A DNA stretch of 64,000 nt, taken from the NCBI GenBank assembly GCA_903825435.1, contig CAIKAP010000081.1, positions 13,118 through 77,117 of the forward strand, given 5' to 3'. The notes beneath the pieces were generated by a model. That model was given only the letters and a program-made list of their open reading frames with translations, was not told the DNA's origin and made no database searches. A program made the translations under genes and the position numbers. Shown piece by piece: positions 2,709-46,939 of the stretch. This DNA comes from an uncultured Verrucomicrobiota bacterium. GTDB lineage: Bacteria; Verrucomicrobiota; Verrucomicrobiia; Palsa-1439. Positions within the stretch are counted from its first letter, which is position 1. Each line of letters opens with the position of its first letter.

Positions 2709-2731
2709 ATGTTCCGGCTTTGTTCCGGCTG
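2709..2731 (+). repeat. GTTCCGG direct-repeat element (ATGTTCCGGCTTTGTTCCGGCTG)
   Basis: two GTTCCGG heptamers 11 bp apart; member of a 13-copy family in this window; lies in the promoter region of the secreted-protein gene. Confidence 0.8.
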
Positions 2732-2904
2732 CCCTGTCAAAAAATCAGAAGGCCGCGCCAGCGGCGCGATCTCCTTGTGATGATGCTGTTGCCGTCTTAC
2801 GGCACGGTGACCAACGCGGGATCGCTCCAGCCACCGGTATTATGGCTGCCTTTGGCGGCGACACGCATTCAGACACGGCTGACCGGCGGCGCAACGAAGC
2901 CGTG

Positions 2905-3040
2905 TTGCTGGTGAACAACGTCGTTTCGTTCCGGGGAGATGCACTGTTGTCGTTGAACAACGCGCCATTGTCGTCGAACCTACTGGCATTGTCGTTAAAC
3001 AATGCGGCGTTGTTCTCGAACAAAATGACGTTGTTCCATC
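2905..3040. repeat. array of ~6 tandem 21-bp units each containing a TTGT(C/T)(G/C)T-N2-GAACAA inverted-repeat site (iteron/operator-like)
   Basis: TTGTCGTTGAACAA at 2947, TTGTCGTCGAACC at 2968, TTGTCGTTAAACAA at 2989, TTGTTCTCGAACAA at 3010 (perfect 6-2-6 palindrome), degenerate units at 2905, 2926, 3031; spacing exactly 21 bp. Confidence 0.75.
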
Positions 3041-3222
3041 ACTTTTCCGCCTTGATCAACGCTGGAAAGACCGCATTTCAAGCAACTTACACGCTTTTAC
3101 CAGAAAACAGGCTACCGGTGAGATGGTCAAGTGGTCAGCGCCTGCCCGCCGTCCCACCATCCGTTGGTATCCGGGCAAAAAATAGCGGCAAGTCACTTCC
3201 CAGCGAACTCAAATTAAGCGTG

Positions 3223-6039
3223 CTAGAGCTGCCGCGATTTCCGTTTTGGTCGAGCCGCCGCGACGAGCGGGGCGGTGATCTTTTCGTAGAGGGCGAACAG
3301 GTATTCGACGCGGTGGCGGTCGCTCGCGAATGGTTCGGGCCGGTAACAGCGATCCACGGCGCGGTCGAGGGCTTGATGCGCTTTCAACAGCGGCGCGGGC
3401 ATCGTCAACGGATCGTAGAGATCGGCCAGCGTCGCGGTCGGATACTGCGCCCGCGCGTCCAACACCGCCTGCGCCGCCGCGGCCACCGCCGCCCGCTGCT
3501 TCTCCGTCACCGCCCCCGGCCACGAATACGTGTTGTAAACCATGCTGCCAGAATACCGGTAATCTGACTTCAACCGACCGCCGACTTGCCTTACCCACGC
3601 CATGTGCATTGCCGACGTGAGCACGCCGAAAAGGTAAAGGCTGTCTGATGGCACGAGGAAATTCGTGTTTGCCGAAATCACAGTCGGTGACATGAAGCCG
3701 ATGGGAATGTAGTTGCGACGCTCGGAAGAAACTTCCGGAATGAGGATGTATTTGGTTGCCGGCTGCGAGATATAAAAGAACAGCGTTGGTGTCTGCGCGG
3801 CTTTGCGCGTGGGTGCAGCGGTGCTTTTCGCGCGGAACTCTTTCACAGCTTGCACGCGCTTCATGACTTCAGGCAAGTCGCGAAACTCTGACGGGCTGGC
3901 GTCCTTGAGCCAGAGACACCAGCGCATGTTGCCGTTGATGAATTCTTCGGAGCCGGTAAAGCGTTTGAGAAATTTCACGGCTCCCGGCTCGACGGCGAGG
4001 AGTTCCTTCTTCTCGGCGTCAGTGAGGATGAAGTTACCGCCGTCAGACGGCTTGTTACCGCAACGCATCTCAGGCACGTCCGCAAGTGGTGTGGTGCGCT
4101 TGGTGACGAAGCTATCGGAGCCGGGAGTCAGATACGGGCTGATGTTGGCGGCTTCGCTGACGACCGGATGCTCATCGTCGGTGTCGTAGTCGTAGATGCG
4201 CTTGTTGCCGGTGTCGAATGCGCCGAAGCCGATGATAACGACGTGAACGTGTGCCTTGCCGCGCGCTTCGCTTTCCCAAGCGAAGGTGCGGTGCGCGAAG
4301 TGAATCTTCACCCGGTAACGGCCAAAGAGTAGCCCCCAAACGATTGGGACTTGCTCGCCTTGCGTGATGGAGTTGGTGGCGACCAAGCCGACGCGGATCT
4401 GCGTGCCCTGAATATATTCGGCGGCCCGGTAGAACCACGAGACGACGTAATCCATGTCGCCGGTATTCTTGAAGTCACGGAAAACGATAGCCATGTCAGC
4501 ATGTTGGTCGGCATTTTGGTAATGCTTTCCAACGAACGGCGGATTGCCGAGGACGAAGGAGCATTGATCGGGCGGCAGGACGGTGCGCCAGTCGGTGCGA
4601 AGCGCGTTGCCGACTTGGATTGTCGGCTTGGCGCGGAGCGGCAGGCGTTGGTACATCTGACCGAAGGCTTGCGAGAGCGCGACGTTGGCTTGGTGGTCGG
4701 TGAGCCAGAGCGCAACCTCGGCGATGCGTGCCGGGAATTCCTCGACTTCGATGCCGTAGAACTGGTGAACGTTCAACTTGGAAAGCTGGTTCACGGCGTC
4801 GAGGGACATCTCGTGTTGCGCGCCGTGGAGTTCGAGGAGGACTTCGAGTTCGAGTTTGCGGAGTTCGCGGTAGGTGAGGACGAGGAAGTTGCCGCAGCCG
4901 CAGGCGGGATCGAGGAAGCGGAGTTTGCTGAGCTTGTCGTGAAACTCCTGGAGGCGCGCGGTGCGGCGGGTGGACCGGTCGGCTTTGATGGTCTCGAACT
5001 CGGCGCGGAGGTCGTCGAGGAACAGGGAGCGGATGAGTTTGAGGATGTTCTTCTCGGCGGTGTAGTGCGCGCCGATCTGGCGGCGGGCCTTGCTGTCCAT
5101 GACGGCTTGGAACAGCGAGCCGAAGACGGCGGGGGAGATGGTTTCCCAGCGGAAGGCGCAGCAGGCGAGGAGGCCGTTGCGCATGTCGGCGTTGAACTCG
5201 GCGAATTCGAGGTGCTCGGCAAAGAGGTCGCCGTTGACGTAGGGGAACTGGCTGAGTTCCTCGTCGAGTTTCTTCTGGCGTTGTGGGGTGTCGGTGTTGA
5301 GGACGCGGAAGAGTTGTTCGAGGCGGACACCGAGATCGGAGCCGTCCTCGGCAGTGCGGTCGCGGATGAAGAGTTCGAAGGCTTTCTGGGGGAAGATGCC
5401 GTTGTCCTCTGCGAAAAGACAGAAAAGGATGCGGACGAGGAAGCGTTTGAGTTCGTGGCCGGTATAGCCGCCCGTTTCCAACGCGTCGTGCAAGTCGCAC
5501 ATGAGTTGCGTGGCGACGAGGTTGGCGGGGTCTTCGGGATTGAGCCGGTGATGGGTATAGCCGGCGATAAAAGCGAAGTGGCGGACGTGCTTGTGGAGTT
5601 CCGTCAGTGGAAATTCGATGGTGGGCGGGAGGCGCTGGAACAAAGGTGCGTCAGGGTCTTGCTCCGGCTCCAGATCGTGAATAGCGATGCGGGCGAAGTC
5701 GGAGACAATCAGCCAGCGGGGAATCTCGCGGTCACGGCCGGTATCCTTGAGACCGCGGATGTAGGCCATGCCTTGCGCGTGGGCCTTGCCGAGTTCTGCC
5801 CCAGCGGACTTGTGCTCGACGAGCAATCGCCCCGGCCAAAACAGGTCAATGAATCCCCAATCGCCGGAGAGTTTCTTGACCGGCTCCTCGAACGTGGCAA
5901 CGGTGCGGCGGCGGACGCCAAAGACGTTGAAGAACTCATTCCAGAAGGTTTGGCGCTCGGCGGCTTCACGCGTTTCGCCTTTCCAGTCTTTGCTAAAGGC
6001 GATGGCGCGGTGGCGAATCTCATTCCATGACAGCGGCAT
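3223..6039 (-). CDS. MmeI-family Type IIL restriction-modification enzyme (N-terminal PD-(D/E)XK nuclease + gamma-class N6-adenine methyltransferase + TRD in one chain)
   Basis: 938 aa; N-terminus MPLSWNEIRHRAIAFSKDWKG and FIDLFWPGRLLVEHKS (D-X9-EXK) align with MmeI; motif I LDPACGCGNFL; motif IV NPPF; GAHYT motif X. Confidence 0.85.
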   Translation of the reverse strand: MPLSWNEIRHRAIAFSKDWKGETREAAERQTFWNEFFNVFGVRRRTVATFEEPVKKLSGDWGFIDLFWPGRLLVEHKSAGAELGKAHAQGMAYIRGLKDTGRDREIPRWLIVSDFARIAIHDLEPEQDPDAPLFQRLPPTIEFPLTELHKHVRHFAFIAGYTHHRLNPEDPANLVATQLMCDLHDALETGGYTGHELKRFLVRILFCLFAEDNGIFPQKAFELFIRDRTAEDGSDLGVRLEQLFRVLNTDTPQRQKKLDEELSQFPYVNGDLFAEHLEFAEFNADMRNGLLACCAFRWETISPAVFGSLFQAVMDSKARRQIGAHYTAEKNILKLIRSLFLDDLRAEFETIKADRSTRRTARLQEFHDKLSKLRFLDPACGCGNFLVLTYRELRKLELEVLLELHGAQHEMSLDAVNQLSKLNVHQFYGIEVEEFPARIAEVALWLTDHQANVALSQAFGQMYQRLPLRAKPTIQVGNALRTDWRTVLPPDQCSFVLGNPPFVGKHYQNADQHADMAIVFRDFKNTGDMDYVVSWFYRAAEYIQGTQIRVGLVATNSITQGEQVPIVWGLLFGRYRVKIHFAHRTFAWESEARGKAHVHVVIIGFGAFDTGNKRIYDYDTDDEHPVVSEAANISPYLTPGSDSFVTKRTTPLADVPEMRCGNKPSDGGNFILTDAEKKELLAVEPGAVKFLKRFTGSEEFINGNMRWCLWLKDASPSEFRDLPEVMKRVQAVKEFRAKSTAAPTRKAAQTPTLFFYISQPATKYILIPEVSSERRNYIPIGFMSPTVISANTNFLVPSDSLYLFGVLTSAMHMAWVRQVGGRLKSDYRYSGSMVYNTYSWPGAVTEKQRAAVAAAAQAVLDARAQYPTATLADLYDPLTMPAPLLKAHQALDRAVDRCYRPEPFASDRHRVEYLFALYEKITAPLVAAARPKRKSRQL

Positions 6040-6246
6040 GGCGACGGAGTGTAGTCGGTAGGAAAGAGCAGGACAAGCACGATGCTTATCCGACGCGGAC
6101 GCCTCAGCGAGGCGTTCCTACCAACAACCAGAATCGCAGTTCCGGCAATAGGCCCGATTGACGTTGACGGCGCAATCAGGCCGTGATGAACGCTGCCGAT
6201 CTGGTATTACGGTGAATAATTGGCTTCAAGAAATGTCCAAAAGCAA

Positions 6247-8115: not shown

Positions 8116-8267
8116 AACGCGCGAGCTAGTGGGTAGCTCAAGACCGACAACCTCGAAACAGTTCTGCTCGCGATAAAAACCGCGCGTACTGAGCGTTTCG
8201 GTACATTGGAGTCAGCCGTTTGAATCAAGCTTGCTGTTGGTTTGTCTTGGCGGTAGAAAAAAGTATC

Positions 8268-9797: not shown

Positions 9798-9798
9798 G

Positions 9799-10524: not shown

Positions 10525-10568
10525 TGCAAACTTCCCTTCGGCACTTTGTTTTTGATAACATGGCCGCC

Positions 10569-16382: not shown

Positions 16383-16471
16383 GTCGCAATGGTGTGGTTT
16401 TCAACCTCCACCACAACAGTCACTTCCGGTTTTGCGATGAACACACACCAACATCGCTGGTCGTCGAAAAC

Positions 16472-16496
16472 TGACCAGCGTGGTCAAATCACGCCA
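16472..16496. promoter_or_regulatory. palindromic upstream site TGACCAGCGTGGTCAAATCACGCCA (putative enhancer-binding-protein UAS)
   Basis: TGACCA-N3-TGGTCA inverted repeat ~90 bp upstream of the sigma-54 promoter; related copies at 18424, 29767, 36667, 43288. Confidence 0.5.
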
Positions 16497-18382: not shown

Positions 18383-18450
18383 CAACCGGAATAAAACCGG
18401 AACATGACGCCGGTGCGGTCAACTAACCAACGTGGTCAATTTCCGACACC
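18383..18450. repeat. 68-bp composite repeat: GTTCCGG element (rc) + TAACCAACGTGGTCAATTTCCGACACC upstream site; left copy of kdp-flanking direct repeat
   Basis: about 91% identical to 29727-29792; lies in the divergent amt/kdpA intergenic region. Confidence 0.75.
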
Positions 18451-20176: not shown

Positions 20177-22230
20177 TGAGTACCAAAGTCGAAATCAAAT
20201 ACTCCGAGCTGGTCCGCCACGCGGTCATTGACGCCTTCAAGAAGCTCGACCCGCGCGACGAGATCAAGAACCTGGTCATGTTCGTCGTCTATGTTGGCGC
20301 GATCCTGAGCACCGGCGTTTTGTTCCGGAATTGTTCCGGCTTCAATATCCAGATCTGCCTCTGGCTCTGGTTTACGTGCCTCTTCGCGAATTTCGCCGAG
20401 GCGATGGCCGAGGGCCGCGGCAAGGCGCACGCCGACGCGTTGAAGAAGATGCGGACGAAGACGCTGGCCCGCAAACGCGACGGCCAGCGAGTCAACGCCG
20501 CCGAGCTGCGCAAGGGCGACGAAGTTGTCTGCGAAGCCGGTGACACCATCCCCGCCGACGGCGAAATCATCGAAGGCATCGCGACCGTTGACGAATCCGC
20601 CATCACCGGCGAGTCCGCGCCCGTCATCCGCGAAAGCGGCGGCGACCGCAGCGCCGTCACCGGTGGCACGCGCGTCATCAGCGACAAGATCATCATTCGC
20701 GTCACCGCCGATGCCGGCAACTCGTTCCTCGACCGGATGATTTCGATGATCGAAGGCGCGCGCCGGCAAAAAACACCGAACGAAATCGCGTTGAACATCC
20801 TTCTCGTCAGCCTGACCGCACTGTTTATCCTCGTCGTCATCACGTTGCCGGCGTTCGCCCGGTACAACGAGAAGGCCGCGAGCCAGACCGGTGTGGTGCT
20901 CACAACGCTGCCGGTGTTGCTGGCACTGATTGTGTGTTTAATCCCGACGACCATCGGCGGCCTGCTCAGCGCTATTGGCATTGCCGGCATTGACCGGTTG
21001 ATGCGGCGCAACGTGCTCGCCACCAGCGGACGCGCCGTCGAGGCGGCGGGTGACGTGGACGTGTTGCTGCTCGACAAGACCGGCACGATCACACTCGGCA
21101 ACCGGATGGCGACGGAATTCATTCCTGCGCCCAGTGTGAAGATCGAGGAACTCGCCGACGCCGCGCAACTCGCGTCGCTTGCCGACGAAACGCCGGAAGG
21201 ACGTTCCATCGTTGTGCTCGCGAAGGAAAAACACGGACTCCGTGGCCGCGAAGTCGCCGAGCCGCACGCCGTGCCGGTGCCGTTCACGGCGCAGACCCGG
21301 ATGAGCGGCGTGGATTTTGGCGACGGCACGCGCCGCATCCGCAAAGGGGCGACCGAGGCCGTCCAGGCGTTTGTCGAATCGCAAGGCGGTGTCATGCCGA
21401 AAGCTGTGACGCAAATCGTCGAACAGATTTCGCGCAGTGGCGGCACGCCGCTAGTCGTGTGCGACGGCAAGAACGTGCTTGGTGTCATCCAACTCAAGGA
21501 CGTTGTCAAAGGCGGCATCAAGGAGCGTTTCGCCCAGCTCCGCAAAATGGGCGTGCGCACCGTGATGATTACCGGCGACAACCCGCTGACCGCCGCCGCC
21601 ATCGCCGCCGAGGCGGGCGTGGATGATTTCATCGCGCAGGCGAAACCCGAAGACAAACTCGCCCGCATCCGTCACGAGCAAGCTGGCGGCAAATTGATCG
21701 CGATGATCGGCGACGGCACGAACGACGCTCCTGCGTTGGCGCAAGCCGATGTCGGCGTCGCGATGAACACCGGCACGCAAGCCGCCCGCGAAGCTGGGAA
21801 CATGGTGGACCTCGACTCGAATCCGACAAAGCTGATTGAGGTCGTCGAGATCGGCAAGCAACTCTTGATGACGCGCGGCGCGTTGACGACGTTTAGCATC
21901 GCCAACGACGTGTCAAAATATTTCGCAATCCTGCCGGCAATGTTCGGCGTACTCTACGCGACGACTGCGCTGGGTAAAGGCCCGCTCGACAAGTTGAACG
22001 TCATGCACCTGCACTCGCCGGAGAGCGCAATCCTTAGTGCGGTGATTTTCAACGCGCTGATCATCGTCGCGCTGATTCCGCTGGCGTTGCGCGGCGTGAA
22101 GTACCAGCCGCTCGGCGCCGCCGTAATCCTGCGCAAGAACATGCTGATCTACGGCGTCGGCGGCCTCATCATTCCGTTCATCTTCATCAAACTGATCGAC
22201 ATCGCGCTCGTCGCATTGAGGCTCGCATGA
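20176..22230 (+). CDS. kdpB: potassium-transporting ATPase subunit B (P-type ATPase)
   Basis: [21 protein letters not shown] motifs; ATG overlaps kdpA stop (TAATGA). Confidence 0.9.
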
Positions 22231-23667: not shown

Positions 23668-23729
23668 CTGGCGGCAGTTGCAGTTACCGTCCTCTCTTTG
23701 TTGTAGATGCTTGCCTCCCGATGTGGCTT

Positions 23730-26276: not shown

Positions 26277-26304
26277 CGCGGGCCGGTTGGCGCAAGCTTG
26301 CGTT

Positions 26305-26327
26305 ATGTTCCGGTTTTGTTCCGGCTG
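26305..26327 (+). repeat. GTTCCGG direct-repeat element (ATGTTCCGGTTTTGTTCCGGCTG); opens 15-codon uORF 26305-26352 (MFRFCSGCFLAFGLR)
   Basis: between MTase start and kdpD ATG (26371); uORF stop TAA at 26350-26352. Confidence 0.8.
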
Positions 26328-29025: not shown

Positions 29026-29693
29026 GTCCGGTGGCGTTGATCATCGAGGACGAAATCCAGATGCGGCGCCTGTTGCGCGTCGGCCTGGAAGGCGCGGGCT
29101 ACAAAGTCGGCGAGGCGTCGGACGGCCAGCAGGGATTGCAGGAGATCGTGTACCAGCGACCCGACGTGGTGCTGCTCGATTTGGGATTGCCCGACATGGA
29201 CGGCGTCGAGGTGCTGAAACGGTTGCGCGAGTGGTCGCATGTGCCGGTGGTGGTGTTGACAGTGCGCGAGGACGAACACGACAAGGTCCGTGCGCTCGAC
29301 GCGGGCGCGGACGATTACCTGACGAAACCGTTCAGCACGGCGGAACTGCTGGCGCGGTTGCGGGCCGTGCAACGGCGCGCGCCCGAGGCGCAGGAGGAAC
29401 CGGTGTTTGTGTGCGGTGATCTCACGATGGATTTCGTCGCGCGAACGGTGGCGGTGAAGGGCAGGGAGGTGCATCTGACGGCGACGGAGTATTCGCTATT
29501 GCACGAACTGGTTCGCCACGCAGGTAAGGTGGTGACGCACAAACAACTGTTGCGCGCCGTCTGGGGACCGCAGGCCGAGACGCAGTCGCAGTACCTGCGC
29601 GTCTACATCACGCACGTGCGCCAGAAGTTGGAGTCCGCGGGCCGTCTGATCCGCAACGAGCCTGGTGTCGGCTACAGGTTGCTCACCGGCTAG
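29022..29693 (+). CDS. kdpE: KdpE OmpR-family response regulator
   Basis: receiver domain (VLLDLGLPDMDG) + winged-helix C-terminus; overlaps kdpD stop. Confidence 0.9.
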   Translation: MSPVALIIEDEIQMRRLLRVGLEGAGYKVGEASDGQQGLQEIVYQRPDVVLLDLGLPDMDGVEVLKRLREWSHVPVVVLTVREDEHDKVRALDAGADDYLTKPFSTAELLARLRAVQRRAPEAQEEPVFVCGDLTMDFVARTVAVKGREVHLTATEYSLLHELVRHAGKVVTHKQLLRAVWGPQAETQSQYLRVYITHVRQKLESAGRLIRNEPGVGYRLLTG

Positions 29694-29726
29694 ACACGGA
29701 TTGGTACCAGAAACCGGTAAAAACGC

Positions 29727-29792
29727 AGCCGGAACAAAACCGGAACATGACGCCGGTGCAGTCAACTAACCAGCGTGGTCAATTCCCGACAC
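29727..29792. repeat. right copy of 68-bp composite repeat (GTTCCGG element rc + TAACCAGCGTGGTCAATTCCCGACAC)
   Basis: about 91% identical to 18383-18450, same orientation, 34 bp after kdpE stop; no sigma-54 promoter or gene follows it. Confidence 0.75.
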
Positions 29793-31916: not shown

Positions 31917-31985
31917 AAGCTGGAGTCCGCGAGCCGCCTGATCCGCAACGAGCCGGGCATCGGCTACCGGCTGTTGGCGGACTAA
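31917..31985 (+). pseudogene. orphan 3' fragment of an OmpR-family response-regulator gene (kdpE-like tail KLESASRLIRNEPGIGYRLLAD*)
   Basis: about 80% nucleotide and 18/22 amino-acid identity to the kdpE 3' end at 29625-29693; no receiver domain upstream. Confidence 0.7.
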
Positions 31986-34126
31986 GCCTGTGGCGGGCGG
32001 CCTTTCCGGAAGAGGCGGATTGGCAGAATCACCACAGGCACACCGGCGAAACGGAGGCGGCGCTGGATGAAATAGGAGGTGTCGTTGTGCAGCATCCGGT
32101 CGTACCAGCGCGGTTCGTCGAACACGATCTCGCCGGCAAAGACGACGGCGCGCGGATATTCGCGGTGCATCTCCAGGCAGAGCGTGGAGACTTCCTCGAC
32201 GACGTCCAACCCGATGCGGTGCGCCCCGCGCGCGGGCACGCCGAGGCGATGGGAGAACTCGATGTATTGGTCGAGGGTGTCACGCGTGCGTTTCTCCAGA
32301 TGCTCGACTTGGTTTTCGCCCTTGAAGAACTCGGAGTTCATCACGCCGACGGAGACGAAGACGACGTTTTGGAACGTCTTCGGGAACATGCGGAAGATGT
32401 TCAGGAGGCAATGGATGCCGAGCTTGGCACTGCCGCCGACGAGGATGACGGCAGTCGGTTTCTTCGGGTCGAACTCGGGCAGCGTTGATGCGTTGGTGCT
32501 GGTGGGAATGTTGTCGAGGGAGCTTTCGACTTCGCGGACACGTCGGGCAACGTCGCGATAGTGCGAGCGGATGAGGAAACAAAGGCCAATGCAGAGGCCG
32601 GTCACGGCGAGTGTGACCCAGCCGCCTTCGCCCAGTTTCTCGATGAGCATCACCGCCAGGATCGAAAGGCACAACACCAGACCGGTCGCGTGCACGGGCA
32701 AATGTTGTTTCCATTTTGGGTCGGTCTTGCGGTGTCGGATCCAGAACCGGACCATGCCCATTTCCGAGAGCGAGAACGTGGCGAAGACGTTGATGCTGTA
32801 CATGACGACCAGCAACGTAATACTGCCGCGCGTGTACGCCAACGCCCCCGCGGCAGCGGTGCCGATCAGTAGCACGCCGTTCTGTGTCGTGAGCCGGTCG
32901 GAGAGCGCGGCGAACCGGCGTGGTAACCACGAATCGAGCGCCATGTTGGCCATCACGCGCGGGCCGTCAATGAAACCGGTTTGCGCCGCGACGAGCAGCA
33001 GGACCGATTCCGACAGAATCGTGACCGCCGCGAACCATTTCCCGACCGGTAACCCGGCGACCTGCCAGTTGCCGGCAAACGCGTTCGCGAGGACGGTGTT
33101 CAGGGTTTGACCCTCGACGGGTTTCACGCGGAAGAGCATGTAGCAGAGGAGCAGTCCGCCGGCGGTCAACGCGAGCGAGACGGCCATGTAGGTCATGGTG
33201 CGTTTGCCGGTCTGGACTTTCGGGTCGCGCATGATGCCAAGGCCGTTGGACACGGCCTCGATGCCGGTGTAGGTGCCCGCGCCGAGCGAGTAGGCGCGCA
33301 TGACCAGCAGGAATAATTTCCAGCCGCCCAACATCAACCACGCCTCGCGCCAGCCGGCGCGCGCCTGGTGCACCACCATCGGCGCGTCGCCGACGTGCAT
33401 CAACAGGCCGCCACCGATCAGGATGATGTGCGTGACGATGAACGTCAGGAACACGGGCACGAGCATCGAGACTGATTCCTTGACGCCGCGCATGTTCATC
33501 ACGGTCAACAACACGATCGTGCCGAACTCCACCGGCAGCTTGAAATGCTGGTAGTGCAGCGGCAACAAACTGAACAGGGCGTCAGTGCCGCTGGCGATGG
33601 AGACGGTGATGGTGAGGATGTAGTCCACCAGCAACGCGCAGCCGGAGACAACGCCGGCAGTGTTGCCGAGCAGTTCGGTGGCAACGACGTAACCGCCGCC
33701 GCCATGAGGGAAATGCTCGATGATGCGGCTGTACGCGTAGGAAATGATGAACACCGTAAGTGCCGTTGCCGCGGCGAGCACGACGGCAAGCCAGACATTG
33801 TTGCCGAGCGCCTTGTATGCTTCCTCGGGGCCGTAAGCTGACGACGACAGGCCGTCCGCGCCAAGGCCGACCCACGCAAGAAACGCGATGAGCGAAATCT
33901 TGTGGACAAGCGACGGGTCTTTCAGGTCGCGCGGAGCGCCGAGCACGGCGCGTCGCAACTTCTTACCAAACGTTTGGGGCAATTGCCCCGGTGCAACCGG
34001 TTCCATACTGTCCTCTCGCTTGCCTACGAGGTTAGCTGACGGGCTAAGAGGGAGAAGAACGACTCTCTTCTCCGAACATGTCGGAGTTAGCCCCAAACGA
34101 CTTGGGTCCCCCGTTCCGCGCGACAC
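31982..34126 (-). CDS. APC-superfamily amino acid/polyamine permease with extended cytoplasmic C-terminal domain
   Basis: 12 TM APC-like core (GAGTYTGIEAVSNG) + ~220-aa soluble C-terminus; real start probably internal (MEPVAPGQ, near 34005). Confidence 0.6.
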   Translation of the reverse strand: MSRGTGDPSRLGLTPTCSEKRVVLLPLSPSANLVGKREDSMEPVAPGQLPQTFGKKLRRAVLGAPRDLKDPSLVHKISLIAFLAWVGLGADGLSSSAYGPEEAYKALGNNVWLAVVLAAATALTVFIISYAYSRIIEHFPHGGGGYVVATELLGNTAGVVSGCALLVDYILTITVSIASGTDALFSLLPLHYQHFKLPVEFGTIVLLTVMNMRGVKESVSMLVPVFLTFIVTHIILIGGGLLMHVGDAPMVVHQARAGWREAWLMLGGWKLFLLVMRAYSLGAGTYTGIEAVSNGLGIMRDPKVQTGKRTMTYMAVSLALTAGGLLLCYMLFRVKPVEGQTLNTVLANAFAGNWQVAGLPVGKWFAAVTILSESVLLLVAAQTGFIDGPRVMANMALDSWLPRRFAALSDRLTTQNGVLLIGTAAAGALAYTRGSITLLVVMYSINVFATFSLSEMGMVRFWIRHRKTDPKWKQHLPVHATGLVLCLSILAVMLIEKLGEGGWVTLAVTGLCIGLCFLIRSHYRDVARRVREVESSLDNIPTSTNASTLPEFDPKKPTAVILVGGSAKLGIHCLLNIFRMFPKTFQNVVFVSVGVMNSEFFKGENQVEHLEKRTRDTLDQYIEFSHRLGVPARGAHRIGLDVVEEVSTLCLEMHREYPRAVVFAGEIVFDEPRWYDRMLHNDTSYFIQRRLRFAGVPVVILPIRLFRKGRPPQA

Positions 34127-34177
34127 GCGGATTCGGCATCGGCGGGGAAGATAGTCCCCGCCGCTGTTTTGTCAAGC

Positions 34178-35263
34178 TCACTGGCGAAACTCCGGGTAAC
34201 TCATCAATCCCGTCTCGCCGATATCCAGTCCTTCCCATTCGACCTCCGGCGCCACGCGCATCGGTGTCAACCGGTCCAGCGCCTTGAACAACACCCATGC
34301 GGCCGCGAATCCACCGCCGCCGAGCGCCGCCATGCCGGCGACTTGCGCCGCAAAATGTCCAGTACTGGCAAACGACGCGGCCAAAACGCCGCAGAGGCCG
34401 CCCGCGCCGTGGATCGAGATCGAACCGGCTGGGTCGTCAATTTTCACGCGGTCGAACCACGGCACCAGCACGCACGCCAGCAACCCGGCGACTGCGCCGG
34501 TGAACAGGCCGAACGTCGGCCCCGCGATGGCGCCGCTGGCGGCCAGCCCGGCCAACAGGCCGGTCACCGCGAGCGTCGGGTCGGGTTTGCCGTTTCGCAA
34601 CGTCATGAAAGTGACCGCAGCGATCGTGCCGCCTGCGCCCGCCAGCGCGGTGGTGGCGGCGTCGGCGTTGAGCGCGAGCCAGCCGACGCTGAGCAGCATG
34701 CTGCCGGTTAGCGCGAGCGGAACGTTGTGTGCAGGGATCGGCAGCGGGCGGCCGTCCTTGTTGTAGCGGCCGAGACGCGGACCGATGACCAGCGCACCGG
34801 CCAGTGCGACCGCGCCGCCGAAAAGATGAATCACGCCGGAGCCGCTGGGGTCGAGGTAGCCGAGCTTGGCGAGCCAGCCGCCATTCCAACTCCAGAGTGC
34901 GGCGACCGGCCAGAGCACGCCCGCAATGGCGAGCGCGCTGAGGTAGAAATGTTTAAGGCTCCAGCGTTCCGCGAGCGCGCCGATGGGGATGCAAACGACA
35001 ATCGCGGTGGTCGCGGCACGGAAAAGAAAGAGGGTGTTGTTGTCCGGAACATTTCCGGAACATCGGCTGCCGAGGAGCCAGAACGCGGCGAGCGCGAGCG
35101 CGGTGCCGAACAACGCGAGGAAAATGGTGTGACTGGCGTTTTTGGCCCGGCTCAGCCCGGCGGCCAGGAGAGAGAGGCCGCCGGGCATGAGGAGGACCAA
35201 CACGGCCGCCGCCGTAACCGACGAAGGAGACGCACTGACGACCGTGTTGGTGGGTATGGGCAT
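34178..35263 (-). CDS. short Amt/Rh-type ammonium channel (third paralog)
   Basis: 361 aa; VIHLFGGAVALAGALVIGPRLGRY and HGAGGLCGVLAA motifs; contains an in-frame GTTCCGG element (35044-35063) encoding RCSGNVPDN. Confidence 0.75.
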   Translation of the reverse strand: MPIPTNTVVSASPSSVTAAAVLVLLMPGGLSLLAAGLSRAKNASHTIFLALFGTALALAAFWLLGSRCSGNVPDNNTLFLFRAATTAIVVCIPIGALAERWSLKHFYLSALAIAGVLWPVAALWSWNGGWLAKLGYLDPSGSGVIHLFGGAVALAGALVIGPRLGRYNKDGRPLPIPAHNVPLALTGSMLLSVGWLALNADAATTALAGAGGTIAAVTFMTLRNGKPDPTLAVTGLLAGLAASGAIAGPTFGLFTGAVAGLLACVLVPWFDRVKIDDPAGSISIHGAGGLCGVLAASFASTGHFAAQVAGMAALGGGGFAAAWVLFKALDRLTPMRVAPEVEWEGLDIGETGLMSYPEFRQ

Positions 35264-36492: not shown

Positions 36493-36526
36493 ATTTCCTC
36501 CAACGGTTGAGTTTGCGTTTTCGTAT

Positions 36527-36546
36527 CCGGAACATTTCCGGAACAT
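36527..36546 (-). repeat. GTTCCGG element (rc: ATGTTCCGGAAATGTTCCGG) in porin 5' leader
   Basis: lies between the putative sigma-54 promoter and the porin ATG; same 24-nt string as at 35044-35067. Confidence 0.75.
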
Positions 36547-36560
36547 CGGCAGACCACATT

Positions 36561-36577
36561 CGCAGTGCCCGTGCCAG
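36561..36577 (-). promoter_or_regulatory. putative sigma-54 promoter for porin-amt operon
   Basis: minus strand CTGGCACGGGCACTGCG (TGGCACG-N4-CTGCG; GG and GC correctly spaced). Confidence 0.45.
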
Positions 36578-36666
36578 CAGTGGAGAGGGTTTCCGTAAAC
36601 GCTTGGCGTGCAATTCACTGTGGGAAGCGACAAAGTTCAGCCGGTGCAGAAGAAGACAACAGCGGT

Positions 36667-36690
36667 AGCCAGTCTGGTCAAATCACGCCA
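36667..36690. promoter_or_regulatory. UAS-family site AGCCAGTCTGGTCAAATCACGCCA
   Basis: 16/16 identity with TGGTCAAATCACGCCA at 16481-16496. Confidence 0.5.
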
Positions 36691-36734
36691 CGGCGCGCTT
36701 GTCGAAACGGCGATGACTGACTACACTGCGCGAT

Positions 36735-39203
36735 ATGGTCAAAAGATTCTCCACGTTTAGGGCGGCTCTTGTTAAGTCCAAGACTGAAGAGGAAGTCAAA
36801 CATGCCTACGCCGAACATTTCGGATTGGATTATGACACGGAGTTTCGCCACGACCTGTATTCCCGGGAAGTCTTCTACGAATTCAAATTCTCGCGCAGTC
36901 TGCAAAAGCGGGAGTCTCGCGCTGCCGTCATCGCGCAAGTGTTGTATTACGTTCGGCAACTGCGTTTTGGTCACGCAGACAAGGTTGTTCCGCCAGTGAT
37001 TTGCATTGCGGAGGGAAAGCAGGCTTTTTTCACAGAGACGAACAAGTGGCGGAAGTTTTATAGCAACGACAGCAAATACGATTGGGAACTTGCTCCGAGC
37101 AATCCGGACAAGCAATTGATTGCAGACCTCGTCGCTTTTCCGGAGACGAACAGCATCAAGGTCTTTGATGTTCTCGATGAAGCCGAGTATGAGATGTTCA
37201 AGCAGCTTCTTGAACATCATCGCGCTACGCAGCTTGCGTTGGATTTCCGAGTTAAGAAGCTCATCACCGAGGACAATTTCGAGGAAGTTTTTGATTATTG
37301 GAACAAATGTTTCGGCGAAGACGTCCGCAACGGAACGAAACCTTCGCGTTACTTTTTGTGCGACATCCAGCAAGGCCGTTCGCTCTACGATCGGAAAGAA
37401 AATAAAGTCGTATTTTTTGTTGGCCCGGAGGAGAAGCGCGCGAAGAAAATCCTGCCGAAAGAATATGAGTGGTTTTGGTCGAACTACGAGAAAGTCACCA
37501 ATGCTGACACCGCGCGCAACATCCTTGCGAAAGTCGACCGTCTGACCGAGGAGCCGATCCGCCGATTCACGGGCGAGTTTTTTACTCCTGTTCCTTTTGC
37601 TCGGAAGGCTCATCAATATCTTGAAAGGGTTCTCGGACCGAAGTGGTGGACGAAGAATTATCGCCTTTGGGATATGGCAGCAGGCACGGGAAATCTGGAA
37701 TGGTTTCTCCCCGCCGATTCTTACAAGAGCATTTACCTTTCGACGCTCTATGAAGAGGACGTGCAGCATTGCAAGCGCGTGTTTCCGGGGGCGACCATTT
37801 TCCAGTATGATTATCTGAATGATGACGTTGACAGTGTTTTTGATCAGCAATTACTCTTTAAGCAGCCCCGCAAAATGCCCGAGAGTTTATTGCGAGATCT
37901 GGCAAATCCAAAAATCAAATGGATCGTTTTCCTCAACCCACCGTTTGCCACGTCGAATAAGACGGGTTTCACCGGCGAAAGCAAGAAAAGCGTGAGCGAC
38001 ACTAAAATCCGCCCGCTCATGCACGAGCAGGGCCTGGGCGAAGTCTCGCGTGAATTGTTCGCGCAATTTGCTTTTCGCATCCAGCGGGAGTTCAGCGGCA
38101 AGAAGGCGTTTCTCGGTCTTTTCTCCAAGCTCAAATATGTCAACGCCAATAACGACCAGAAATTCCGTGATAACGTTTTCCAGTTTTTATTCAAAGACGG
38201 CTTTATGTTTTCGTCGGCGACATTTTCAGGCACTCAGCCAACGAATTCATTTCCGGTCGGCTTCCTAATTTGGGATTTATCGCGCCGCAAAAAACTTGAA
38301 GAACAAAACATTGAAGTCGCCATCCTCGATGCCGACACGAGCAAAATTGGACGAAAACGAATCGTCGCCGAACATCGCTCGCGCTTCTTGAGCAAATGGA
38401 TTGACCGACCGCCAACCACGGAAATCTTTCCGCCGTTTAGCAGCGCAATTTCTGTGAATGACGGCAACACAGACATCCGCGACCGTGTCGCGAAAGGTTT
38501 TCTTGCTTCGTTCATGTGCAAGGGAAACGACGTGCAAAATCACAACAACGTCGCCTTGCTCTCCGGCCCGTATGTCAGCGCGGGCGCGTTGTCCGTCGTA
38601 CCGGACAACTTCGATAAGGCGATGGTCGTTCACGCCGTCCGCAGGAGCGTTCGCCAGGGTTGGATTAACGACCGTGACCAATTCCTCCAACCCAAAGAAC
38701 AACCGGGCGCGAGTTTTGTGGTGCGCTGCGTGGTCAGAAGTCTGTTCGCCAATTCCAATGAGACCGTTTCACTGCGGAACGTTGCGTACGAGGGGAACAC
38801 GTTTCAGGTCGTTAATCATTTTTTCCCATTCAAAGTTGCCGTACTAAAGAAGTGGGAAATTTCCGATTCCGACATCAAGCATTCACTGGCGCGCGACACC
38901 GACGACCGCTTCGTTGCTAACTGGCTGGCAAAACAAAAACTGGACGCATCCAGCCGGGAACTGTTGGAACTCGGTCGTGAAATCTACAAGGCGTTTTTCA
39001 AGAACTTCAAAGATCTGCCGACCGCAAAATACAAAATCGAGCATTGGGATGCCGGTTGGTGGCAAATCAAACGATGCCTCGTCGAAGCCGGCTTGGAGAA
39101 AGAGCGCTTTGCACGAGTTGAAGAAATCAAGAAACAGTTAAACGCCGAAATTAGTGAAACGGCCTTGCAGTTGGGGATGATTGCCACCGTAGATTTGTTC
39201 TGA
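36735..39203 (+). CDS. Type IIG-like restriction-modification enzyme (N-terminal nuclease-like region + gamma-class N6-adenine MTase + C-terminal TRD), horizontally acquired
   Basis: 822 aa; motif X GEFFTP, motif I WDMAAGTGNLEW, motif IV FLNPPFATSN; candidate D...EGK nuclease motif near residue 80; GC well below flanks. Confidence 0.7.
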   Translation: MVKRFSTFRAALVKSKTEEEVKHAYAEHFGLDYDTEFRHDLYSREVFYEFKFSRSLQKRESRAAVIAQVLYYVRQLRFGHADKVVPPVICIAEGKQAFFTETNKWRKFYSNDSKYDWELAPSNPDKQLIADLVAFPETNSIKVFDVLDEAEYEMFKQLLEHHRATQLALDFRVKKLITEDNFEEVFDYWNKCFGEDVRNGTKPSRYFLCDIQQGRSLYDRKENKVVFFVGPEEKRAKKILPKEYEWFWSNYEKVTNADTARNILAKVDRLTEEPIRRFTGEFFTPVPFARKAHQYLERVLGPKWWTKNYRLWDMAAGTGNLEWFLPADSYKSIYLSTLYEEDVQHCKRVFPGATIFQYDYLNDDVDSVFDQQLLFKQPRKMPESLLRDLANPKIKWIVFLNPPFATSNKTGFTGESKKSVSDTKIRPLMHEQGLGEVSRELFAQFAFRIQREFSGKKAFLGLFSKLKYVNANNDQKFRDNVFQFLFKDGFMFSSATFSGTQPTNSFPVGFLIWDLSRRKKLEEQNIEVAILDADTSKIGRKRIVAEHRSRFLSKWIDRPPTTEIFPPFSSAISVNDGNTDIRDRVAKGFLASFMCKGNDVQNHNNVALLSGPYVSAGALSVVPDNFDKAMVVHAVRRSVRQGWINDRDQFLQPKEQPGASFVVRCVVRSLFANSNETVSLRNVAYEGNTFQVVNHFFPFKVAVLKKWEISDSDIKHSLARDTDDRFVANWLAKQKLDASSRELLELGREIYKAFFKNFKDLPTAKYKIEHWDAGWWQIKRCLVEAGLEKERFARVEEIKKQLNAEISETALQLGMIATVDLF

Positions 39204-39270
39204 AAAGGCATCTCTTCCCGTTCGCGCGGGGATGACGGCTCGCAATAGCGTGCCTTTCCGACTCACCGTC

Positions 39271-39292
39271 ATGTTCCGGTTTTGTTCCGGCT
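39271..39292 (+). repeat. GTTCCGG element (ATGTTCCGGTTTTGTTCCGGCT)
   Basis: in the convergent gap between the Type IIG gene and the PP2C-kinase gene; 26-nt identity with the 29727 copy. Confidence 0.8.
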
Positions 39293-39293
39293 T

Positions 39294-41084
39294 TTATTTC
39301 GGCGGGTGGAAGATCAGCCAGATGATCAAACCGAGAATCACCAGCAGCGGCAGGCCGATGGCGAGAATGACGGAGCGATAACGTCGCAGTGCAGATTGCA
39401 TCGGGGTGGCGGCTTGAAGCCGGTCGGCGCGGCCGGTGACGGTGACGAGTTCGGGGGAGTCGAGGTCAGCTTTCAACTCGGCGGCAGAGGCATAGCGGTC
39501 GTTGGGGTCGCGGGCCATCGCGTGCAAGATTATTTCTTCAACCTGTGGCGTGAGCGCCGGGTTGTGTTTGCGTGGCGCTTCGGGATCGCCGATGAGGCGG
39601 GCATTCATGACGACGAGCGGGTTGTCACCTTCGTACGGCGCGTGGCCGGTGAGCATTTCGTAGAGGATGGCGCCGAGCGAATAGATGTCGGTGCGGGCGT
39701 CGCCACGTTTGCCGCGGACTTGCTCGGGTGCCATGAAATCGGGCGTGCCGAGCGCGGGACTGAACCCGGCAAAGGTGATACGTTTTCCAGCCGCGCCGGC
39801 GATGCCGAAGTCCATGAGGCGGATCGTGCCGTCGGGACAGATCATGATGTTCTGCGGTTTCAGGTCGCGGTGGATGATGCCGTTTTGGTGGAGATAAATC
39901 AGGGCGTCGGTGACGCGGCTGGCAATGGAAAGGGCGTCGCGCGGTGGTAACGGGCGGACATTGGTGAGGAGGTGGGCGAGCGTGTAGCCGCGCAGGTATT
40001 CGGTGACGATGTACGGGCGGCTTTTGTTTTCGACTTTGATGAATTTGAGGATGAAAGGATGGTTGAGGCGGAGGCCGATGTCTTCTTCGCGCTCGAAGCG
40101 GGAGAAGAATCCGGGGTCGCTCTCGAACTGGAGGTGCGGGACTTTGACGGCGACGTATTGTTTGTCGTGGGCGAGGTCCTGCGCTTTGAAGATGGTGGCC
40201 ATGCCGCTGCGACTGATGGTCTCGGTGACGAGGAAACGGTTGTCGAGCGTCTGGCCGGGCTGGACTTCGGTGGTTGAGGCGGACGGCGCGGCGGGCGTGT
40301 GATAGACGGGGACGCCACGGTACGAACCGACTTCCTCGACGGCGTTGATCTGGACGACTTGGACGCTGACGTTATCTTCGGTGCCGCGTTGTTCCGCGAG
40401 GGCGACGAGCTGGCGACCGGCGGCGCTGGGATTGAACCGGCTGACGATGTCGCAGATCTCGCCGTCGGCGACACAACCGTGCAGGCCGTCGGTGCAGAGG
40501 ATGAGCCGGTCACCGGCGAGGAGATTGGTGTCGTCCACGTCAATGCGGATGGTCGGCTCCTGGCCGATGGTGCGCGTGAGCATGGAGCGGTTCTCGCTGG
40601 TGCGCGCGTCGGCCTCGTTGATGAGGCCGAACTTGCGCTGCATGGCGACGTAGGAATGATCGGTAGTGAGCTGGCGGATTTCGTTGCGGCGGGCGAGGTA
40701 GACGCGAGAGTCGCCGACGTTGCCGATGGTGGCGGTGTTGTGACGGAGGATGACGACGGCCAGCGTGGTGGCGATGCGGCTGCGACCGTGCTCCTTCATG
40801 CCCTCGTCGTACACGGCGAGGTTGGCGGCTTGAAAAATTTCGGTGATGAGTTGCTGCGGCGCGGTGCCGGGTTTGGCTTCGCGGAATATCTTGAGCGCAG
40901 CGTCAACGGCGAGCCGGCTGGCGACTTCGCCGCGCTGGAGGCCGCCGAGGCCGTCGGCAATGACGACGATACTGCCGCGCTCGCGTTTCTCGTCGAGTGA
41001 GTCGGGCTTCCAAAAACCGACGCTATCCTCGTTGTGGTCGCGAACGGGGCCTGCGGTGGTGAGTTCAGCGTAGGTCAGTTCCAT
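39294..41084 (-). CDS. bifunctional PP2C phosphatase / Hanks-type Ser/Thr protein kinase with C-terminal TM anchor
   Basis: N-terminal PP2C (NEDSVGF, IADGLGG, DGLHG), central kinase (VAVKV, HRDLKPQNIM, DFGIA, APE), C-terminal hydrophobic helix. Confidence 0.8.
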   Translation of the reverse strand: MELTYAELTTAGPVRDHNEDSVGFWKPDSLDEKRERGSIVVIADGLGGLQRGEVASRLAVDAALKIFREAKPGTAPQQLITEIFQAANLAVYDEGMKEHGRSRIATTLAVVILRHNTATIGNVGDSRVYLARRNEIRQLTTDHSYVAMQRKFGLINEADARTSENRSMLTRTIGQEPTIRIDVDDTNLLAGDRLILCTDGLHGCVADGEICDIVSRFNPSAAGRQLVALAEQRGTEDNVSVQVVQINAVEEVGSYRGVPVYHTPAAPSASTTEVQPGQTLDNRFLVTETISRSGMATIFKAQDLAHDKQYVAVKVPHLQFESDPGFFSRFEREEDIGLRLNHPFILKFIKVENKSRPYIVTEYLRGYTLAHLLTNVRPLPPRDALSIASRVTDALIYLHQNGIIHRDLKPQNIMICPDGTIRLMDFGIAGAAGKRITFAGFSPALGTPDFMAPEQVRGKRGDARTDIYSLGAILYEMLTGHAPYEGDNPLVVMNARLIGDPEAPRKHNPALTPQVEEIILHAMARDPNDRYASAAELKADLDSPELVTVTGRADRLQAATPMQSALRRYRSVILAIGLPLLVILGLIIWLIFHPPK

Positions 41085-41175
41085 GTTGGCGGGTGCAGGC
41101 TAATCGGCGTTGGAGGAAATTGCAAGGCGGTCGTCCTGCTCGCGCAAGACGACCGCCCTGGATTTAGGTTATTGT

Positions 41176-43137: not shown

Positions 43138-43287
43138 TTGTTGTTGGGTTCAGTTGTTTCGGTCGGTTGGCACATCAACACCTGCTGTGCCACGGCCGGA
43201 GCGATTCGCTCCAACTACGCAGGAAAGAAGCCTTTAGCCGGAATGTCGTGGCAACACGCGCCGCGGGGCTGTTCCATTTTGCTGCCC

Positions 43288-43310
43288 ACGCTGGTCAAAA
43301 GCCGACACGC
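43288..43310. promoter_or_regulatory. UAS-family-like site CACGCTGGTCAAAAGCCGACACGC
   Basis: resembles CGTGGTCAATTYCCGACAC copies; ~65 bp upstream of the MmeI-like gene. Confidence 0.35.
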
Positions 43311-43375
43311 GCCCGGCCGCCGACCGGTAAGGACAGGCTTGCCGCAGCCTGTGTGCGTTGGCATACTGCGCAGGC

Positions 43376-46075: not shown

Positions 46076-46095
46076 TCGGCCTTCCGCTGACCGTT

Positions 46096-46386
46096 TTACC
46101 GCACTGGTTCGTGCGCTTGGCGGCCGGTCACCTTGGCGTAGGCACGGCAAAATGGGCAGGTGTGGATCTCAATCCTCTTGACCAACTCGAACGCGACGCC
46201 GCGTTGCTTCTTGCGGGCACGCCGACAGACGGGGCAGACCGCGCAGACTTTGGCAAGTTTCCGGTCAAGCGCCGTGATGGTGGTTTGGCTCATGGCGCGC
46301 AGCATGAACGTTCCGCGGTCGCCCGTAAAGCCGGAACCATCATCCATTCGGACACTGCCATTGACGAACGGGGGTATGTGCGGCAT
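46096..46386 (-). CDS. small putative zinc-ribbon protein
   Basis: CAVCPVC...HTCPFC (two CxxC pairs); 96-aa ORF, start uncertain; could be spurious. Confidence 0.3.
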   Translation of the reverse strand: MPHIPPFVNGSVRMDDGSGFTGDRGTFMLRAMSQTTITALDRKLAKVCAVCPVCRRARKKQRGVAFELVKRIEIHTCPFCRAYAKVTGRQAHEPVR

Positions 46387-46400
46387 CTGTTACAGCAGAA

Positions 46401-46913
46401 ATGAAAACCATCACGCCCACCGAATTGCTGAAACTTCTCGCCACGCAGCCGGACTTGTCGTTGATCGATGTCCGCACCCCGGTGGAATTCGCCGAGGTCC
46501 ATGTGCCGCAAGCGCGGAACGAACCGCTTGATGAGTTCAAGCCGCGCAACGAACCGGTTTATCTCCTCTGCCGTTCCGGCAACCGCGCCGCGAAGGCGGC
46601 GGCGAAATGTCCGCAGGGCATCGTGGTCGAGGGCGGCACGCTGGCATGGATTGCGGCGGGCCTACCGGTCACGCGTGGCACCACCAAAGTCATCAGCCTC
46701 GAACGGCAGGTCCGCATCGCAGCCGGCGCGTTGGTGCTGGCCGGCGTGATACTCGGCTGGCGCGTGCATCCCGGCTTCTACGGGCTGTCGGCATTCGTCG
46801 GCGCAGGGCTTGTGTTCGCCGGTATCACGGATTTCTGCGGCATGGGATTGTTCCTGGCAAGAATGCCGTGGAATCGCGCGGCCGGTGCGGCGGTTTCCTG
46901 CAAGCTGTCCTGA
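46401..46913 (+). CDS. rhodanese-domain protein fused to DUF2892-like membrane domain
   Basis: rhodanese active-site loop LLCRSGNRA; C-terminal two hydrophobic helices. Confidence 0.65.
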   Translation: MKTITPTELLKLLATQPDLSLIDVRTPVEFAEVHVPQARNEPLDEFKPRNEPVYLLCRSGNRAAKAAAKCPQGIVVEGGTLAWIAAGLPVTRGTTKVISLERQVRIAAGALVLAGVILGWRVHPGFYGLSAFVGAGLVFAGITDFCGMGLFLARMPWNRAAGAAVSCKLS

Positions 46914-46917
46914 CGTG

Positions 46918-46939
46918 ATGTTCCGGTTTTGTTCCGGCT
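46918..46939 (+). repeat. GTTCCGG element (ATGTTCCGGTTTTGTTCCGGCT)
   Basis: in the convergent gap between the rhodanese gene and the PP2C gene. Confidence 0.8.

Follow-up and report, generated by a model that had tools for sequence, protein, structure and literature searches.

A bipartite 19-bp word, consisting of two identical octamers in direct repeat (TGTTCCGG-N3-TGTTCCGG, 11-bp period, spacer summarised as WWW), is present in 11 perfect copies in a 64-kb stretch of DNA from an uncultured freshwater Verrucomicrobiota bacterium (contig CAIKAP010000081.1; the whole stretch is referred to as the window), for which base composition predicts about 5e-5. Two further copies carry one and two mismatches, respectively (Table 1). 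Copies within genes arose, as codon alignments indicate decisively, by point substitution, mostly synonymous, and not by insertion of a mobile unit. Searches of related DNA show that only a narrow clade of uncultured freshwater Verrucomicrobiota has the word, which is absent from the sister lineages. The reading we favour, with a probability of about 0.4, is by analogy: the word may be a transmission-bias tag resembling the DNA uptake sequences (DUS) of Neisseriaceae and the uptake signal sequences (USS) of Pasteurellaceae, read by a tandem DNA-binding protein.

Sequence and origin of the word

A preliminary description of this DNA had taken the heptamer GTTCCGG as the element and placed it at seven intergenic positions (2709, 18386, 26305, 29727, 36527, 39271, and 46918). 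All seven hold a copy of the 19-mer, but the heptamer is not the unit. The window contains 37 heptamers, compared with an expectation of 14.7 and a shuffle maximum of 23. Pairs account for 23 of the 37, and the other 14 do not exceed chance, so that the excess is due entirely to pairs spaced 11 bp apart. Lone octamers outside pairs are likewise at chance level, the enrichment being limited to pairs of 11-bp period, and the few matches with three mismatches in the window reflect chance or the conserved Amt peptide FCSG. Both the heptamer as the unit and chance or base composition as the origin of the pairs are ruled out by these counts.

When 36 non-redundant perfect copies, drawn from four or five species, are compared, only the two octamers carry information. 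The spacer is A/T-rich yet variable (TTT in 18/36, AAA in 8/36). Beyond the octamers there is a weak A at −1 and a weak CTG(C) at +1 to +4, the faint extended consensus is GCGTnA...CTGC, and flanks beyond about 6 nt are unrelated. By its sequence the word is a bipartite recognition word of the protein-binding type, with octamers on the same face of the helix and a loosely constrained A/T spacer. Including the mismatched copies, seven lie on the plus strand and six on the minus strand, and there is no strand skew.

Genes were mapped with Pfam, PADLOC, NCBIfam, and a codon-usage gene caller. Intergenic DNA makes up 6.7% of the window and holds 7 of 12 copies, an approximately ninefold enrichment (p about 4e-6). 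Divergent and convergent gaps are preferred (6/15 hold a copy) over same-strand gaps (1/22). The word is nevertheless not restricted to intergenic DNA: five perfect copies inside kdpB, amt3, der, an S-adenosylmethionine (SAM) methyltransferase gene, and purD had been overlooked. Copies occupy each of the three frames, on the sense or the antisense strand, and gaps of the 5′/5′, 3′/3′, and tandem kinds. All five coding copies belong to genes with orthologues in relatives, and none lies inside restriction-modification (R-M) or insertion-specific genes. No RNA family was detected at word sites and no tRNA in the window by Rfam and tRNA checks, the only match being a c-di-AMP riboswitch elsewhere.

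The origin of the coding copies was read from two codon alignments, those of der and the methyltransferase gene. At the der site the motif-free locus L216 has AGC GTT CTG GAC CTG TTT CGC, the locus L214 has a one-mismatch version at the same position (AAT GTT CCG GAT TTG TTC CGT, one step short of the word), and the window has AGT GTT CCG GAT TTG TTC CGG. The L216 and window versions differ by six substitutions and no indel; five of the substitutions are synonymous, and all six, read from L216 to the window, lead toward the word. The pattern recurs in the methyltransferase gene, where GGC GTT CCG GAA ATG ATC CGC in L216 corresponds to AAT GTT CCG GAA ATG TTC CGG in the window, again with no indel. 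Since substitutions without an indel account for both sites, the force at work would appear to act on the DNA word itself and not through insertion.

These alignments bear directly on whether the word is a miniature mobile element, a unit of about 20–35 bp resembling repetitive extragenic palindromes (REP) or miniature inverted-repeat transposable elements (MITE) and spread by transposition. Intergenic copies do share a weak consensus of ~30–35 nt (GCGTCA-word-CTGCgtt), and some pairs form long inverted repeats. For the coding copies, which lack an indel, such an origin is rejected, and with unrelated flanks, a unit that is a direct repeat and not a palindrome, and no sign of a target duplication or of a gene for RAYT or transposase, the explanation is barely credible for the word in general. 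At least one copy, that at 29729, differs from the coding copies in having been made by a 67-bp segmental duplication. Position within a gap also turns over: between the porin and PP2C genes, L214 has its copy upstream of the sigma54-type promoter and the window has its copy downstream.

Table 1. Copies of the 19-bp word and associated repeats in the window
Feature	Position	Strand	Context
Degenerate copy, 2 mismatches, AGTTCCGG-AAA-TGTTCCTG	612–630	−	Inside 877-aa open reading frame (ORF) 1–2634(−)
Perfect copy, spacer CTT	2710–2728	+	Intergenic, 75 bp upstream of start of ORF 1–2634(−); 494 bp from 3′ end of MmeI-like gene 3223–6039(−), 21-bp array between
1-mismatch copy, TGTTCCGG-TTT-TATTCCGG	18386–18404	−	Divergent gap amt2/kdpA; second unit ATTCCGG
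Copy A of 67-nt direct repeat (UAS-like box + word)	18383–18449	−	Positional orthologue of relatives' amt2 upstream region
Perfect copy, spacer AAT	20321–20339	+	Inside kdpB, sense, about codon 49
Perfect copy, spacer TTT	26306–26324	+	Divergent gap BsoBI-type methyltransferase/kdpD, 46 bp upstream of kdpD ATG
Perfect copy, spacer TTT	29729–29747	−	Convergent gap kdpE/DUF2130, 35 bp from kdpE stop; in copy B of 67-bp repeat
Copy B of 67-nt direct repeat	29726–29792	−	93% to copy A, 97% to CAZNOK orthologue
68-nt remnant of kdpE 3′ end	31917–31984	+	81% to 29625–29692
Perfect copy, spacer AAA	35044–35062	−	Inside amt3 (34178–35263, −), sense
Perfect copy, spacer AAA	36527–36545	−	Leader of porin-amt3 operon, 34 nt before porin ATG; 15 nt after sigma54-type promoter CTGGCACGGGCACTGCG
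Perfect copy, spacer TTT	39272–39290	+	Convergent gap 822-aa low-GC gene/PP2C-kinase gene, 3 bp from kinase stop
Perfect copy, spacer TTT	46919–46937	+	Most of 36-bp convergent gap rhodanese/PP2C, 12 bp from PP2C stop
Perfect copy, spacer ATT	52825–52843	+	Inside der/engA, encodes S-V-P-D-L-F-R
Perfect copy, spacer AAA	56910–56928	−	Inside SAM methyltransferase gene 56394–57113(−), encodes N-V-P-E-M-F-R
Perfect copy, spacer ATT	63663–63681	+	Antisense inside purD (63127–64000, −)

Occurrence in relatives and at rearrangement junctions

The window represents an uncultured freshwater population, near-identical contigs with the same arrangement being present in several lake metagenomes. The word was found in this species, in the metagenome-assembled genome (MAG) CAZNOK01, in VHCW01, and in two metagenomic relatives. 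Among species-representative genomes it was matched in at least 109 stretches, with at least 17 in CAZNOK01, at least 4 in VHCW01, and 1 in every other genome among the matches listed. In 978 kb of family-level relatives there was no copy at two or fewer mismatches and no other tandem 7-mer. Loci L196–L201, L216–218, and L226 (Amt 86–92% or Der 78% identical), covering ~20 kb each, also hold none. In 21 kb of L214 (Der 83%) there are one perfect copy and two with one mismatch. Upstream of amt2, the copy keeps its position in the CAZNOK-type loci (L202–204) and in L205 and is conserved in three species, with a changed spacer; a second copy was present in only 2 of 17 ascertained 8-kb CAZNOK chunks. 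Abundance among close relatives is graded from none through rare and about 1 per 20–60 kb (L214/CAZNOK samples) to 1 per 5.8 kb in the window, the highest density seen and, for the window species, the value from one 64-kb window. No variant tandem octamers ("dialects") were found in the relatives. Contigs with an identical KdpE, Der, or 822-aa protein all have the same arrangement, and no strain-level presence or absence of cargo was found among them. A literature search on the motif, on uptake sequences in Verrucomicrobia, and on the P4 iteron string returned nothing relevant.

Several of these observations would also suit in situ sites of an abundant chromosomal DNA-binding protein (nucleoid-associated, chromosome-organising, or a global regulator bound head-to-tail), for which OmpR/PhoB-type proteins or a winged helix akin to the origin-binding domains of phages are candidates; selection for bending, insulation of operon boundaries, or domain organisation would then maintain the sites. 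The geometry of two 8-mers at 11-bp period with an A/T spacer fits tandem winged-helix sites, phage replication initiators use the identical octamer at 10–11-bp spacing, and copies concentrate at operon boundaries. In the conserved amt2 upstream region, the word stands between a palindromic box resembling an upstream activating sequence (UAS) and a sigma54-type promoter further downstream, an arrangement kept in three species. The density in relatives resembles that of matS, Noc, and SlmA sites. We nevertheless consider this explanation somewhat unlikely. The spectrum of matches (11:1:1 for zero, one, and two mismatches) is very sharp, as regulator sites seldom are; der, purD, and kdpB contain perfect copies whose frame and orientation are arbitrary; the window and L214 differ in where a copy sits within a gap; and, with none in sister lineages, the whole system would have to be very recent. 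Neighbouring genes have no functional theme, those adjoining copies in CAZNOK being ordinary and functionally unrelated. The nearby amt and kdp genes had suggested a nitrogen or KdpE regulon box; this candidate was rejected on account of the unrelated CAZNOK neighbours, the variable sigma54 positions, and a kdpE remnant only. KdpE as the reader is excluded, since CAZNOK has only a decayed kdpE yet many copies.

Judged by gene order, the 14–48 kb stretch of the window is a rearrangement hot-spot. The porin and PP2C genes are adjacent in both L214 and L216, whereas in the window 10.4 kb lie between them, containing the 822-aa gene, the PP2C-kinase gene, a permease gene, the second MmeI-like gene, and the rhodanese gene. 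The minus-strand copy at 36527 and the plus-strand copy at 46919 form the left and right edges of this insertion. The orthologous junctions of L204 and L214 lack a copy at the position of 46919, and the "empty" site of L214 has one copy, at a position different from that in the window. In CAZNOK-type genomes the order is PP2C, a 236-aa gene, decayed kdpE, UAS + word, and amt2; relative to these, the window has 29.7–46.9 kb and an intact kdp/R-M cluster in addition. The copies at 29729 and 46919 bound 17 kb in whose place CAZNOK-type genomes have a single gene, and the CAZNOK junctions have no copies. The amt gene of L214 is the orthologue of amt2 and directly follows the porin gene, from which it follows that the ancestral porin-amt2-P-II operon was split by 18.3–35.2 kb in the window.

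Copies A and B of the 67-nt direct repeat bracket the kdp block, 11.3 kb comprising kdpFABC, the BsoBI R-M genes, and kdpDE, and the kdpE remnant (R2) and the intact kdpE end bracket the DUF2130 gene, a 256-aa gene, and copy B. Given these two repeat pairs and their layout (R2-cargo-B-kdpE...kdpA-A-amt2), the arrangement fits a model in which a circular kdp segment integrated by a single crossover (Campbell-type), at UAS + word, into an allele without kdp; a kdp-less allele with decayed kdpE is present in CAZNOK-type genomes. The homology between the repeat copies stops within about 4 bp of the 3′ edge of the word, and on this model the junction of the circle would fall there.

The preliminary description had proposed that the element is a hot-spot or recognition site for recombination, acted upon in trans by a tyrosine or serine recombinase or by transposase end-binding; a nicking or packaging enzyme would be a further form of the same idea. 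Part of this stands. Each of the seven intergenic copies is in a gap that, compared with one relative or another, is a rearrangement junction; the pairs 36527/46919 and 29729/46919 bound the 10.4-kb insertion and the 17 kb missing from CAZNOK-type genomes, respectively; and the repeat that brackets the kdp/R-M genes contains the word. Border copies are inverted with their 3′ ends outward, and 29727–29752 and 39267–39292 form a perfect 26-nt inverted repeat, each arm holding a copy. Copies also border the kdp region at both ends, the R-M pair on its right, the 822-aa gene on either side, and the block formed by the second MmeI-like gene and the rhodanese gene on its right. The left border of the R-M pair (23668–23729), the gap before the second MmeI-like gene (43138–43375), and the gap beside the first (6040–6246) have none.

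Other observations make such a site improbable. The five perfect copies that lie in housekeeping genes are products of substitution. The word is present in 6 of ~19 junction gaps and missing from ~13, among them PP2C|DAP_DH, DAP_DH|177-aa, the RsmB-loss gap, RNR|MTase, the left R-M border, and the gap before the second MmeI-like gene. Because nearly every operon boundary in the 14–48 kb stretch is a junction, the association of word and junction discriminates poorly. Orientation is inconsistent (direct at kdp, inverted at other blocks), no target-site duplication was found at word-bordered blocks, and a regulatory box makes up most of the 67-bp repeat, the word being confined to its end. As already stated in the preliminary description, the window has no integrase or transposase gene by Pfam, PADLOC, and NCBIfam mapping, and none was found in the related loci examined. 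The word appears to be genome-wide and not specific to islands, largely the distribution that had been named as speaking against the proposal. It is probably not a dedicated recombinase or transposase site, and it may mark or favour the ends of exchanged segments.

Neighbouring genes and regulatory sequences

Two Type IIG genes and the BsoBI-type R-M pair were confirmed in the window. The 822-aa gene (36735–39203, +), an orphan of low GC content (about 49%) between two word copies, had also been labelled Type IIG, a label for which there is no support: no match was found in Pfam, PADLOC, NCBIfam, or PDB sequences. The adjacent PP2C-phosphatase/Ser-Thr-kinase fusion (39294–41084, −) has no orthologue above 70% identity and equally good matches in Geobacteraceae and Nitrospirota MAGs, and was for these reasons dropped as a synteny anchor. 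From these matches it is probably horizontally acquired cargo. Its kinase domain matches the PADLOC PD-T4-6 models, and the fusion is possibly defence-related.

Beside the first MmeI-like gene, on its 3′ side, the reported arrangement of a word copy and a 21-bp tandem array could be reproduced (array at 2947–3013, 3.2 copies, 70% matches, within the 588-bp gap between ORF 1–2634(−) and the MmeI-like gene). The "secreted-protein gene" described there is doubtful. ORF 2842–3567(+) overlaps the MmeI-like gene by 345 bp, has no family match, and may not be a real gene. A 38-nt sequence occurs in inverted orientation at 26263–26300 and 43334–43371 (76% identity), just upstream of the starts of the BsoBI-type methyltransferase and second MmeI-like genes, where it may serve R-M genes as a common promoter or operator.

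A palindromic box, AACTRACCAGCGTGGTCAAWT, is found at 16469–16496, 18421–18448, 29764–29791, and 36663–36690, that is, upstream of amt1, amt2, and porin-amt3 and in the duplicated copy B, with sigma54-type promoters (TGGCAC-N5-xTGC) downstream. Box and promoters together probably represent an NtrC-type enhancer architecture for ammonium-uptake genes. The product of amt3 (34178–35263, −) has 361 aa compared with about 475 aa and a weaker Amt Pfam score; the rearrangement that divided the porin-amt2 operon may have left amt3 behind as a truncated paralogue. Near kdp, the c-di-AMP riboswitch (Rfam RF00379, 71 bits; 34006–34148, −) lies upstream of an APC-family permease gene (31982–34006, −), whose product is probably a KimA-like K+ importer. 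A further remnant, of an rsmB-like 3′ end (51288–51473, 75% to L214), marks a gene lost in the window; L214 and L216 retain it intact, with the LTXXQ gene on one side and der on the other. There is no word copy at this deletion.

Comparison with known systems

An unexpected counterpart of the unit itself comes from viral DNA. A search of viral contigs (IMG/VR) returned 93 stretches, of which at least 60 are clusters of 4–14 TGTTCCGG-like units at 10–11-bp period in both orientations, situated directly after the 3′ ends of primase-helicase genes and upstream of terminase genes in P2-like temperate phages. As controls, two octamers with matching composition returned 28 stretches (one array) and 24 stretches (no array). 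In Pseudomonas phage phi3 (L372, NC_030940), the 440-bp gap after the primase gene (5189–5629) contains ~20 units around an AT-rich stretch, a cluster that is not annotated in the reference record. By analogy with the ori/crr of P4, for which the annotated type 1 iteron TGTTCACC has the same architecture, the clusters of phi3-type Peduoviridae look like an iteron origin; the recognition of this putative, unannotated origin is a by-product of the present analysis. Clusters of the units TGTTCCGG, CCGGAACA, and CTGGAACA were also noted in L227, L234, L239, L245, L256, L261, L289, and about 55 other IMG/VR loci. A nucleotide search of phage and E. coli collections with a viral cluster gave no match, and the genes adjoining miscellaneous genomic arrays in other phyla have no common neighbour.

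The unit of the window, TGTTCNNN, is identical to that of the phi3-type iterons, shares TGTTC with that of P4, and has the same 10–11-bp spacing. A pair with the sequence and spacing of an initiator-binding iteron pair supports the view that each octamer would be contacted by one protein domain. It might further be supposed that the clade's sites mimic the origin iteron of a phage or satellite of phi3/P4 type, either as decoys that titrate an initiator or as sites exploited by a resident element, e.g., through local over-replication or through packaging that favours transduction. The viral clusters and the near absence of arrays for control octamers speak for this idea, which we regard as highly improbable all the same. 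Phage origins have 6–20 units in both orientations around an AT-rich region beside an initiator gene, 6–14 in the viral clusters, whereas the clade's sites are isolated chromosomal pairs of 2 (rarely 3–4) units within 320 bp, and at none of them was an AT-rich unwinding region with a unit cluster found. The window has no initiator (primase-helicase/Rep) gene, and tblastn with four phage primases found no related primase in about 400 kb of clade DNA, a small sample. Random octamers can also match some iteron array in a collection this large, so that the identity may be a coincidence, and we know of no phage of the clade that uses the octamer.

Among regulatory sites, the boxes of OmpR/PhoB-type proteins (the Pho box, 7-bp direct repeats with a 4-bp A/T spacer; the PhoP box, TGTTTA-N5-TGTTTA; and the KdpE site) are likewise direct repeats of 11-bp period with an A/T-rich spacer. 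They are, however, degenerate, promoter-proximal, and regulon-defining, whereas the word is perfect, lies in coding DNA and terminator-side gaps, and has unrelated neighbours. Attachment sites and transposon ends resemble the word in forming repeats at the borders of inserts: the direct 67-bp repeats at kdp recall attL/attR, and the others are inverted. In contrast to such sites, the word has no accompanying recombinase gene, no target duplication, and no consistent orientation, and most copies lie away from island borders. The cyanobacterial HIP1 (GCGATCGC), Chi, KOPS, and REP sequences are also abundant, lineage-specific words that occur inside genes. The present word is much longer and bipartite, is not palindromic as HIP1 and REP are, and lacks in the window the strand skew of Chi and KOPS.

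We return to the reading of the word as an uptake-type tag. On this reading, a force would act on the word itself wherever it is located, and only such a force would yield the pattern observed. Transmission bias is the best-documented force of this type: cells of the clade would acquire word-bearing DNA from one another in preference to other DNA, by uptake, packaging, or recombination, through a reader protein that would bind as a head-to-tail pair and might be winged-helix-like. Foreign cargo with no internal word would spread best when a copy lies in its flanks. Because flank copies would aid the spread of cargo, copies would be expected at the borders of recent inserts although an integrase is absent. 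The fullest version of this proposal is that the clade evolved its own bipartite self-DNA tag, identical to a phage iteron pair, which promotes horizontal transmission, was driven by substitution into housekeeping genes, and frames integrase-free exchange of cargo at operon boundaries; taken as a whole, this version is doubtful, and we regard it as rather unlikely. The cargo so framed would comprise defence, K+ transport, and NH4+ transport genes, and the reader might be phage-derived.

If the word is such a tag, it would constitute the first uptake-sequence-like system outside the Proteobacteria, with a tandem-dimer architecture. To our knowledge, sequence-specific uptake tags have been found in only two proteobacterial families, and we know of no uptake sequence in Verrucomicrobiota. 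How the specificity of uptake tags evolves is a long-standing question, and a third, independent tag, in the Planctomycetes-Verrucomicrobia-Chlamydiae (PVC) superphylum, would make it testable by comparative genomics. The presence of the word at integrase-free insert borders suggests how uncultured freshwater bacteria might exchange cargo, here R-M genes, a kinase, and transporters, with no dedicated mobile-element machinery. Even if the reader should prove to be an intracellular DNA-binding protein, a site with 16 specified bases that is imposed on coding sequence by synonymous change would be unusual.

Several observations weigh against the uptake-type tag. Known uptake sequences are single contiguous cores and not tandem dimers: the word has two tandem octamers with 16 specified bases, compared with one core of 9–12 bp. 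Classical DUS and USS occur at about 1 per kb, well above the density in the window, and the density in relatives appears to be ~3–10-fold lower still. The intergenic share of 58% is a stronger skew than has been reported for DUS/USS. The window is a heavily rearranged region and may be a local hot-spot. Identity between the window and L214 is not elevated around the der copy that they share, and an uptake tag does not predict that one boundary of the 67-bp repeat should fall within about 4 bp of the word's 3′ edge. In other respects the word resembles DUS and USS. Like these, it is short and sharp, vastly over-represented in one clade, and present on both strands. Its genic copies arise in any frame by substitution, and a weaker extended consensus surrounds a hard core. 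As with DUS and USS, it is richer in non-coding DNA, often just after stop codons, and absent from recently acquired genes.

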